DNA of 64,000 bases from Candidatus Methanomethylicaceae archaeon (GTDB lineage: Archaea; Thermoproteota; Methanomethylicia; Methanomethylicales; Methanomethylicaceae), in contig JACTUC010000002.1 in assembly GCA_015660995.1 (NCBI GenBank), positions 43,480 to 107,479 on the forward strand. The letters run 5' to 3'. Numbering within the stretch: the first letter of the stretch is position 1; each line of letters opens with the position of its first letter. The position numbers and the translations under genes are program-made. Shown here piece by piece: positions 44,089-44,684 of this stretch. The notes below the pieces were generated by a model. That model was not told the origin of the DNA. It made no database searches and worked only from the letters and a program-made list of their open reading frames with translations.

Positions 44089-44304
44089 TCATACTCCAAG
44101 GAGCACCAACAGCCCGATGACCAGACCATAAATGGCCAATGCTTCACAAAGTGTCGCCACTAGAAAGCCTTTAAAAAATTGTTCTGGTTTCTCGACTAAA
44201 GCAGATATGCATGCTGCCCCTACCTTTGCCAATGCATATGAAGCTCCAACAATTGCCAATCCCACAGATAGCCCCAAAGTAGCTAGAACTATATCTGCAA
44301 CCAT
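44089..44304 (-). CDS. Orphan A/V-type ATP synthase proteolipid (c/K subunit)-like protein, single hairpin
   Basis: Two TM helices with small-residue pattern, loop E-K-PE, conserved carboxylate in CEALAIYGLVI. Confidence 0.85.
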   Translation of the reverse strand: MVADIVLATLGLSVGLAIVGASYALAKVGAACISALVEKPEQFFKGFLVATLCEALAIYGLVIGLLVLLGV

Positions 44305-44308
44305 ACTT

Positions 44309-44449
44309 TCATCCCCCCTTTTCCACTTCAGTCTTCTTCTTCAACCTCAATGCAAAGGCATATCCAACAACGCAAGTTACTAAGACAATACTAATCTGAA
44401 ACAAAAAAATCTCTGTGAGCACAATCCCGAGTGTTGCCAATTCATCCAC
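44309..44449 (-). CDS. Putative 46-aa single-TM peptide (not in ORF track)
   Basis: GTG start overlapping the stop of 44442..44684; (M)DELATLGIVLTEIFLFQISIVLVTCVVGYAFALRLKKKTEVEKGG; stop 4 nt before the c-subunit ATG. Confidence 0.55.
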   Translation of the reverse strand: MDELATLGIVLTEIFLFQISIVLVTCVVGYAFALRLKKKTEVEKGG

Positions 44450-44684
44450 CTTTCACACCTCCCCTTAGGCTAGGTATTGCTTCGTCTTTTTTTCGGACTG
44501 GACTTCGTCCTATCCTATCCTTTGTTTGTGATCCACCTTCTCTGAAAAGGGAAGCATAGCATATCGAAATGCAGTTCCTCACGACCTCGGCATTGTTCTT
44601 TAAACCGAGGTACTGCTTCAATTCTAGAAATTTGTCCACTATCTCGCCCTCAAGTTCCACTCTAATTGTGGTGTTTAAGGACAA
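44442..44684 (-). CDS. Ribbon-helix-helix (CopG-like) protein
   Basis: IRVELEGEIVDKFLELKQYLGLKNNAEVVRNCI; paralog of 44826..45017. Confidence 0.7.
   Translation of the reverse strand: MSLNTTIRVELEGEIVDKFLELKQYLGLKNNAEVVRNCISICYASLFREGGSQTKDRIGRSPVRKKDEAIPSLRGGVKGG

Follow-up and report, generated by a model that had tools for sequence, protein, structure and literature searches.

Rotor c-subunits of ATP synthases are normally single-copy and fixed in the atp operon. Enzymes that draw on several c-paralogs are known: the F1Fo enzyme of Acetobacterium woodii has a hybrid c1/c2/c3 ring, the c/c'/c'' rings of eukaryotic V-ATPases hold single-pass helices (Voa1, ATP6AP1/2) inside, and Podospora anserina reportedly has two differently regulated c-subunit genes. 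Here we analyse a 64,000-nucleotide stretch of DNA from Candidatus Methanomethylicaceae archaeon, a methane archaeon from peat (GenBank assembly GCA_015660995.1, contig JACTUC010000002.1, positions 43,480 to 107,479; hereafter the window), in which an orphan c-subunit gene lies in a compact cassette with two ribbon-helix-helix (RHH) genes and two genes for small membrane proteins. The contig, C24 in our numbering, belongs to an assembly of 1.63 Mb in 28 contigs.

As in paralogous-c rotor systems, the organism has more than one c-type gene, and the copies appear to be separately regulated. In those systems the genes are fixed in the chromosome or an operon, whereas the cassette copy is accessory, mobile and rare, and its co-assembly is putative. 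Since c-paralogs within one enzyme are already known, what is new here is a candidate rotor subunit that is accessory, mobile and separately regulated, with new small partners. Full-text literature searches turned up no earlier account of archaeal c-subunit cassettes that are orphan or mobile.

The closest described relatives of the cassette proteolipid are the AtpK/NtpK subunits, represented by the host's own AtpK (contig C9) and by Thermus thermophilus subunit K (PDB 6qum, 5gar). All share the Pfam family, the helical hairpin, the E(K/R)PE loop and the helix-2 carboxylate, and the cassette protein is about as long as the 73-74-residue Thermus chains. Unlike AtpK, it comes without an atp operon or an N-terminal extension, occupies a long separate branch, and is accompanied by the RHH proteins and two membrane proteins. 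The RHH proteins resemble RHH regulators and type II antitoxins (CopG, Arc, Mnt, the N-terminal domain of NikR, ParD, MazE, VapB) in their predicted strand-helix-helix fold and in the palindromes, as putative operators, at their own promoters, and their head-to-head layout can be compared with the divergent two-repressor switches of mobile elements.

The orphan proteolipid and its five-gene cassette

The first-pass annotation of the window, made from the sequence alone, described three tightly coupled minus-strand open reading frames (ORFs), encoding an RHH protein (RHH1), a membrane peptide (TM1) and the proteolipid (c), as one unit and proposed searching for that unit elsewhere. All three genes are real, at window positions 44684-44089, and they recur at at least eight independent metagenome or genome loci. 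The conserved unit, however, is larger than was proposed and comprises five genes, adding a divergently transcribed RHH2 and TM2 (Table 1). The full cassette measures 1.12 kb (window 44087-45209). In blastn comparisons with other loci, the window aligns at 75-82% identity over exactly this interval, from the c stop codon to the TM2 stop codon, and nothing aligns beyond it. Every homologous contig carries a co-directional 72-80-aa protein and a 45-48-aa peptide upstream of c, together with a divergent 63-67-aa protein followed by one of 50-55 aa.

RHH1, TM1 and c are translationally coupled at every locus. In the window, the TM1 start overlaps the RHH1 stop by 8 nt, with GGAGGTG 7 nt upstream of TM1; the c gene begins 4 nt past the TM1 stop, and a run of six T lies ~30 nt downstream of TM2. 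A fused or frameshifted TM1-c gene was considered and rejected: the gap is 4 nt at most loci and 5 nt in locus L009, and the frame relation is not constant.

The ratio of nonsynonymous to synonymous divergence (dN/dS), obtained by the Nei-Gojobori method across cassette loci with a median synonymous divergence (dS) of 0.45-1.4, places all five cassette genes under purifying selection (Table 1). The RHH1, TM1 and c frames are not chance ORFs, because they recur at no fewer than eight loci with dN/dS of 0.16-0.24. The earlier concern that the proteolipid gene might be a decayed copy is refuted by its intact frame and its dN/dS. The most diverged copy, in the genome G020, has a TM2 truncated to 26 aa and has lost the RHH1 tail, whereas its c and TM1 genes are intact.

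The cassette proteolipid matches Pfam ATP-synt_C (PF00137) with E=1.3e-16 and 61 bits against a cut-off of 24, and a whole-genome PF00137 scan, in which it scores 60.3 bits, finds two ATP-synt_C genes in the assembly. Contig C9 carries a complete A-type atp operon divided between the two strands: atpH and atpC run one way, and atpI, K, D, B, A, E and F run the other. The proteolipid is thus an orphan second copy in a genome with a complete operon, as the first-pass annotation had suspected, and not the only atpK of the genome. It sits outside any atp operon, unlike the usual AtpK position beside atpI, and the window contains no other atp gene, again as first described. This genome and two relatives each have a single atpI; with only one AtpI per genome, any ring function must therefore use the host stator. 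A second stator serving a second enzyme was rejected on the same count.

Hydropathy resolves the protein into two hydrophobic helices around EKPEQFFK (loop EKPEQFFKGF), and solved chains in PDB, of V-type c and of Thermus subunit K, align with it over its whole length. The carboxylate E54, in TLCEALAIYG of helix 2, is invariant across cassette copies and matches that of the host AtpK. The cassette proteolipid covers only positions 40-100 of the 102 in the NCBIfam V-type subunit K model, and it lacks the N-terminal extension that every family AtpK gene encodes, corresponding to the mature hairpin alone. Its short homologs (68-78% identical, 70-80 aa) form a class apart from the ~120-aa Candidatus Methanomethylicaceae AtpK, to which the cassette protein is 55-69% identical. 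The AtpK extension itself, ~45-60 residues long, resembles a signal peptide: it opens with basic residues and contains a hydrophobic core and an A-x-A-like site (C9 14196-14555; L039-L066). Thermus subunit K occurs in PDB as chains of 99-102 and of 73-74 residues, lengths that would fit a removed pre-sequence.

The main AtpK is present in 31 of 32 family genomes, the exception being 77% complete. Across 251 genomes of the phylum, most of those with an ATP-synt_C match have one, and the multi-match places listed are single long frames (fused hairpins).

A maximum-likelihood tree of proteolipids (71 columns) unites the cassette copies in one clade (support 100/100) on a stem of 1.18 substitutions per site. 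This clade is nested in Methanomethylicaceae AtpK, which support of 97/92 separates from the AtpK proteins of the other families in the class, and groups with one genus (98/96), a placement that is tentative because the columns are few and the branch is long. By its position in the tree, the proteolipid gene is shown to derive from Methanomethylicaceae atpK, having lost the pre-sequence and passed through one rapid change, with purifying selection since.

Constraint on the captured copy follows that on its source. Per-site conservation in the cassette clade correlates with that in the main AtpK (Spearman 0.61, p=1e-8). EKPEQFFKGFL and TLCEA are invariant in cassette copies, IYGLV is nearly so, and helix 1 is the most variable part. 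Fixed differences from AtpK are few. In the cytoplasmic, stalk-facing loop, Q replaces T and G replaces A; close to the outer end of helix 2, G replaces A and V or L replaces W.

Small membrane partners and the shared control region

Each RHH gene is followed by a gene for a small membrane protein. A single hydrophobic stretch of TM1 lies between an acidic N-terminus and a basic C-terminal tail, with a conserved Glu13 in the helix, and the peptide is predicted to insert with its N-terminus outside and its C-terminus inside. The helices inside V-ATPase rings have the same orientation as that predicted for TM1, a likeness offered as an analogy. TM2 contains a 44-residue hydrophobic stretch interrupted by Asn-Pro, a break that suggests a hairpin. 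Neither protein matches a family in Pfam, PHROGs, NCBIfam or PADLOC, and neither is detectably related to the AtpK pre-sequence, the c hairpin or the other. Two candidate identities of TM1 or TM2, a split-off AtpK pre-sequence and a degenerate c hairpin, were rejected on hhalign probabilities of <7%. The charge distribution of TM1 also predicts an orientation opposite to that of a signal peptide.

RHH1 and RHH2 are paralogs with 32-38% identity and 17 invariant positions. RHH2 copies reach Pfam RHH_1 with E-values of 2.4e-4 to 7.9e-3 at 16.6 bits, below the cut-off of 20.5; RHH1 copies have no Pfam match. An AlphaFold2 model of RHH1, built on a 16-sequence alignment, predicts an extended N-terminus and helices at residues 13-25 and 30-46 with pLDDT >90, followed by a disordered tail (47-80). 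The best Foldseek matches are RHH domains, namely NikR (root-mean-square deviation 1.4-1.5 Å over 41 residues), TCP, RHH-type MazE, VapB, ParD, TacA and Arc; the top probabilities are >=0.9, yet all E-values exceed 0.4 and are individually non-significant, as is to be expected of a domain this small. Paralogy to RHH2, the predicted model and these non-significant structural matches together point to RHH1 being an RHH protein.

The region between the two divergent units contains AT-rich TATA-like boxes and four palindromes (Table 1). Its core averages 85.5% identity in an alignment of seven loci, a level well above the prediction from synonymous divergence in the flanking genes (dS 0.8-1.4). 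Palindromes P1-P3 are conserved across loci, and P4 varies in sequence yet stays palindromic, a compensatory pattern. The region fits auto- or cross-regulation by two RHH repressors, with the palindromes as putative operators.

Related head-to-head RHH pairs with other cargo occur on one Heimdallarchaeota contig and one further metagenome contig, and one single RHH relative stands first in a row of small ORFs, all in one direction, of the sort typical of a virus or plasmid. Since the cargo differs, the RHH pair looks like a portable control module for accessory genes. On the Candidatus Heimdallarchaeota contig (L067 4759-7021), the pair is followed by a 305-aa protein with weak similarity to Csm3/Cmr1/Cas7-like (RAMP) proteins and by a 276-aa protein of no assigned family. 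The locus may represent a RAMP module that stands alone and is controlled by a switch of this type.

Table 1. Features of the cassette, its control region and the surrounding island, in window coordinates
Feature	Position	Strand	dN/dS	Description
RHH1	44442-44684	-	0.18	80 aa, TTG start; predicted RHH fold at residues 1-46, variable basic disordered tail
TM1	44309-44449	-	0.24 (8 loci)	46 aa, GTG start; single-pass membrane peptide
Cassette proteolipid (c)	44089-44304	-	0.16	71 aa, ATG start; A/V-type c-subunit (AtpK) paralog
Control region	44685-44825			141 bp, common to both divergent units
Palindrome P3	44697-44713			CGTGCTAaaaTAGCACG
Palindrome P2	44731-44749			TTGTCCTaaagaAGGACAA
Palindrome P1	44774-44786			ATAACattGTTAT
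Palindrome P4	44788-44801			CAGAAAcaTTTCTG
RHH2	44826-45017	+	0.10	63 aa; RHH1 paralog, divergently transcribed
TM2	45038-45205	+	0.28 (4 sequences)	55 aa; predicted two-helix membrane hairpin
Island	42821-50010			7.2 kb, missing in same-genus relative G017
Left boundary repeat	42868-43002	+		core CTTTTAATTATCT then ~120-nt block D1; 89% identical to 45805-45940
Internal junction repeat	45753-45940	+		D3 + core + D1; left part 86% identical to 49956-50020, right part 89% to 42868-43002
Right boundary repeat	49956-50020	+		D3 then core

Mobility and the host island

The cassette is rare. RHH1 together with a second c gene was found in two of the 62 species genomes of the class, namely this genome and G020, from another genus of the same family, and the cassette also occurs in about eight metagenome variants. 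Peat and wetland metagenomes carry it at the depth of its flanks.

That the cassette travels on mobile DNA, as the first-pass annotation had proposed, is borne out by differing genomic contexts, an empty site in a same-genus relative and low GC content (39.8% against 49.9% for the genome). In the metagenome locus L003, the flanks are 87-88% identical and syntenic to contig C4 of this genome, and the cassette lies beside tRNA-Lys. In G020 it lies between tRNA-Phe and tRNA-Trp, adjoining an integrated element whose genes include RHH genes and a large primase-like one, and loci L007, L009 and L033 have still other neighbours. Cassettes are 75-82% identical to one another both where the host flanks share 88% identity and where they share 74%, so the cassette is decoupled from host divergence. 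The 1.12-kb unit itself showed no terminal repeats.

Two other origins were considered. A multicopy or extrachromosomal element was rejected on the equal metagenome depth of cassette and flanks, and a viral gene on the lack of c-protein or RHH1 relatives in IMG/VR or GenBank phage records. The integrated element of G020 (L026 2937-6740, contig C7), beside tRNA-Phe, encodes several small RHH proteins and one protein of 746 aa that resembles a primase or helicase.

In this genome the cassette is part of a larger island that also contains ORF212, a stand-alone AsnC ligand-domain gene, an AbrB/MazE-like gene, Fer4-AOR-PRT and ORF115. At the empty site of G017 (contig C4 of that genome), a BcrAD gene (window to 42820) joins a GTPase gene (window from 50011) with ~46 nt between them, and the insertion point falls in the upstream TATA-like region of the BcrAD-family gene. 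The three repeats, in the order core+D1, D3+core+D1 and D3+core, suggest that two tandem units (~2.9 kb and ~4.2 kb) were inserted at one site. The island ORFs scanned with Pfam contained no recombinase domain, and the island has no Rfam match.

Several further features were recorded in and around the island. The 212-aa secreted protein and the 77-aa AsnC ligand-domain protein (43121-44006) have close paralogs at C20 49955-50746, at C23 35649-35882 and on C11, and metagenome depth rises 3- to 6-fold over 43572-43973. A 21-nt motif, GTCAACTATACGATAAAGGTC, has 26 copies in the genome (<=2 mismatches) and none in 31 other family genomes; it lies in the window at 42981, 45260, 45919 and 49114 and often clusters at spacings of 0.4-3 kb on C12, C13, C14, C20 and C23. 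The motif was rejected as part of the cassette, being genome-specific and missing from other cassette loci. A short repeat whose translation contains IPRIKVGERQTIETLINEEAL has ~6-7 genome copies (window 45989-46060; C2, C5, C12, C19, C25), one further copy standing directly beside the cassette in L003 (6288-6509); it resembles a dispersed repeat, or what is left of a gene, more than a unique footprint. TfuA, YcaO and BadF/BcrA-family ATPase genes lie just left of the island (39650-42815). TfuA and YcaO form a pair linked to thioamide formation in methyl-coenzyme M reductase.

What the cassette may do

We tentatively favour the reading, somewhat short of probable, that the cassette is horizontally mobile, regulates itself, and carries as its cargo an alternative rotor (c) subunit for the host A-type ATP synthase. 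Under this reading, two RHH dimers would bind the palindromes and set which divergent unit is expressed. With the RHH1 unit on, TM1 and the c isoform would be co-translated and inserted into the membrane, and the isoform would form or join a rotor ring running against the single host AtpI. The altered ring would differ in a property other than ion type, such as subunit number (H+/ATP), central-stalk coupling or sensitivity to a ring inhibitor, and TM1 and TM2 would act as small accessory or assembly partners. Because the paralog keeps the proton-binding, ring-packing and stalk-contact positions, the host AtpI and rotor are its most likely working partners. That G020 retains c and TM1 while TM2 and the RHH1 tail decay was counted in favour of c and TM1 as the core cargo.

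Several points limit or weigh against a rotor role. The proposed assembly into the ATP synthase is deduced from conservation, and a single foreign subunit in a ring could harm the enzyme rather than help it. The cassette is dispensable, being absent from 60 of the 62 species genomes of the class, including the same-genus G017, and its region was found in no RNA run. The roles proposed for TM1 and TM2 are guesses, homologs of these proteins not being detectable. An RHH protein with a disordered tail and small hydrophobic proteins on mobile, low-GC DNA has the look of a toxin-antitoxin or defence locus, and the related RHH pair of the Heimdallarchaeon precedes a RAMP-like protein.

This mobile, toxin-antitoxin-like architecture places a harmful role close behind a beneficial one, which could be altered gearing, robustness or resistance to an inhibitor. 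The cassette may, although we regard this as rather unlikely, be a membrane-poisoning module, of the toxin-antitoxin (addiction) or the abortive-infection (defence) kind, in which the c-like protein, with or without TM1 and TM2, is the toxin. Rings left uncapped by the central stalk, or poisoned host rings, would leak protons through AtpI and depolarise the membrane, and the RHH proteins would repress or neutralise the toxin until a trigger arrives. Such a module would be expected to be mobile, sporadic and low in GC, as the cassette is. As in type II systems, RHH1 is the first gene, overlaps the next (TM1) by 8 nt, and couples an N-terminal RHH domain to a disordered C-terminal tail; its fold matches include the antitoxins MazE, VapB, ParD and TacA, none of them with a significant E-value. 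A small hydrophobic protein follows each RHH, and the island holds an AbrB/MazE-like gene. Unlike type II systems, however, the partners here are membrane proteins, and TM1, TM2 and c match no toxin or defence model in Pfam, PHROGs, NCBIfam or PADLOC. Related RHH pairs do precede other accessory cargo, such as the Heimdallarchaeon Csm3/Cmr1-like RAMP gene, and one heads a virus- or plasmid-like ORF string, but no copies of the cassette were found in viral collections. Two of the few fixed differences from AtpK fall in the loop facing the central stalk; the Glu and the whole of helix 2 are nevertheless kept as in a working AtpK, which a simple pore or poison would not obviously need. The G020 copy has best preserved the parts that would be toxins, c and TM1, and it is the regulator tail and TM2 that decay. 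The metagenome depth of the cassette equals that of its flanks, with no variant letters listed inside it. Separately, the candidate assignment to a known defence system was rejected for want of a PADLOC match.

A bolder form of the favoured rotor reading, which we consider doubtful, is a portable 'rotor-swap': a captured and re-tuned c-subunit, a ring-associated helix and a two-repressor switch would together let the recipient archaeon, or the element that carries the cassette, re-gear or protect the host's only ATP synthase on demand. A parallel is resistance by target replacement, in which plasmid-borne mupA (IleRS), dfr or sul cassettes supply mobile second copies of essential drug targets. 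Like those cassettes, the present one places a housekeeping duplicate on mobile DNA, is sporadic, and combines a burst of change with later purifying selection at functional sites. Unlike them, it has no biosynthetic cluster near it, and a multi-subunit ring would need near-complete replacement of host subunits. No inhibitor is known for this system. If the idea holds, it would allow a shift in H+/ATP near the thermodynamic limit of methanogenesis, or replacement of the target of a ring-binding toxin, and core bioenergetic stoichiometry would become a horizontally transferable, switchable trait.

It is improbable, in our estimate, that the products work independently of the ATP synthase, as a small membrane complex that a bistable RHH switch controls and in which the c hairpin, together with TM1 and TM2, serves as a generic scaffold for a ring or oligomer, acting for example in channel formation, membrane remodelling or signalling. 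The long stem after capture suggests a new function, the two unrelated, co-inherited small membrane proteins have no atp-operon counterpart, and no dedicated stator or stalk genes accompany the cassette; against this, conservation mirrors that of rotor AtpK down to the stalk-contact loop and the carboxylate.

The first-pass annotation had read the Ala that follows the ion-binding Glu, a Glu-Ala pair, as a sign of H+ selectivity and of a possible change in ion specificity. The pair is real, and, with no Gln or Ser/Thr ligands, it fits H+ binding. The main AtpK has the same motif (CEALAIYGLV), however, so Glu-Ala does not distinguish the orphan from the main copy. The ion-site helix TLCEALAIYGLV is identical in both proteolipids, neither has the Gln or Ser/Thr ligands of Na+ rings, and the main AtpK of this genome and of the whole family shows the site TLCEA[LIV]AIYG without a helix-1 Gln. 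A ring that is H+-selective where the main ring is not, or otherwise unlike it in ion type, is therefore very improbable. The other options of that annotation, a changed stoichiometry, a dominant-negative modulator and a depolarising effector, stand as candidate roles. Least credible of all is a non-functional duplication leftover or decaying mobile element: the cassette is rare and TM2 is truncated in one lineage, but dN/dS is 0.10-0.28 for all five genes across loci 75-82% identical in nucleotides, the frames, starts and gene coupling are intact, and the putative operators are conserved.

Whichever role it has, the cassette presents a c-subunit captured from the host lineage, trimmed, packaged, and moved between genomes with its proton-binding and ring-function residues kept. 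The divergent RHH-RHH region would be a compact, portable archaeal switch, one that also occurs with other cargo in Asgard archaea. Should the protein prove to be a poison, part of the ATP synthase would have been turned into a toxin or defence effector of a kind not described before. If, as we tentatively favour, it is active in the host A-type ATP synthase, then horizontal transfer could change the gearing or the vulnerability of this central energy enzyme in organisms with very little energy to spare.

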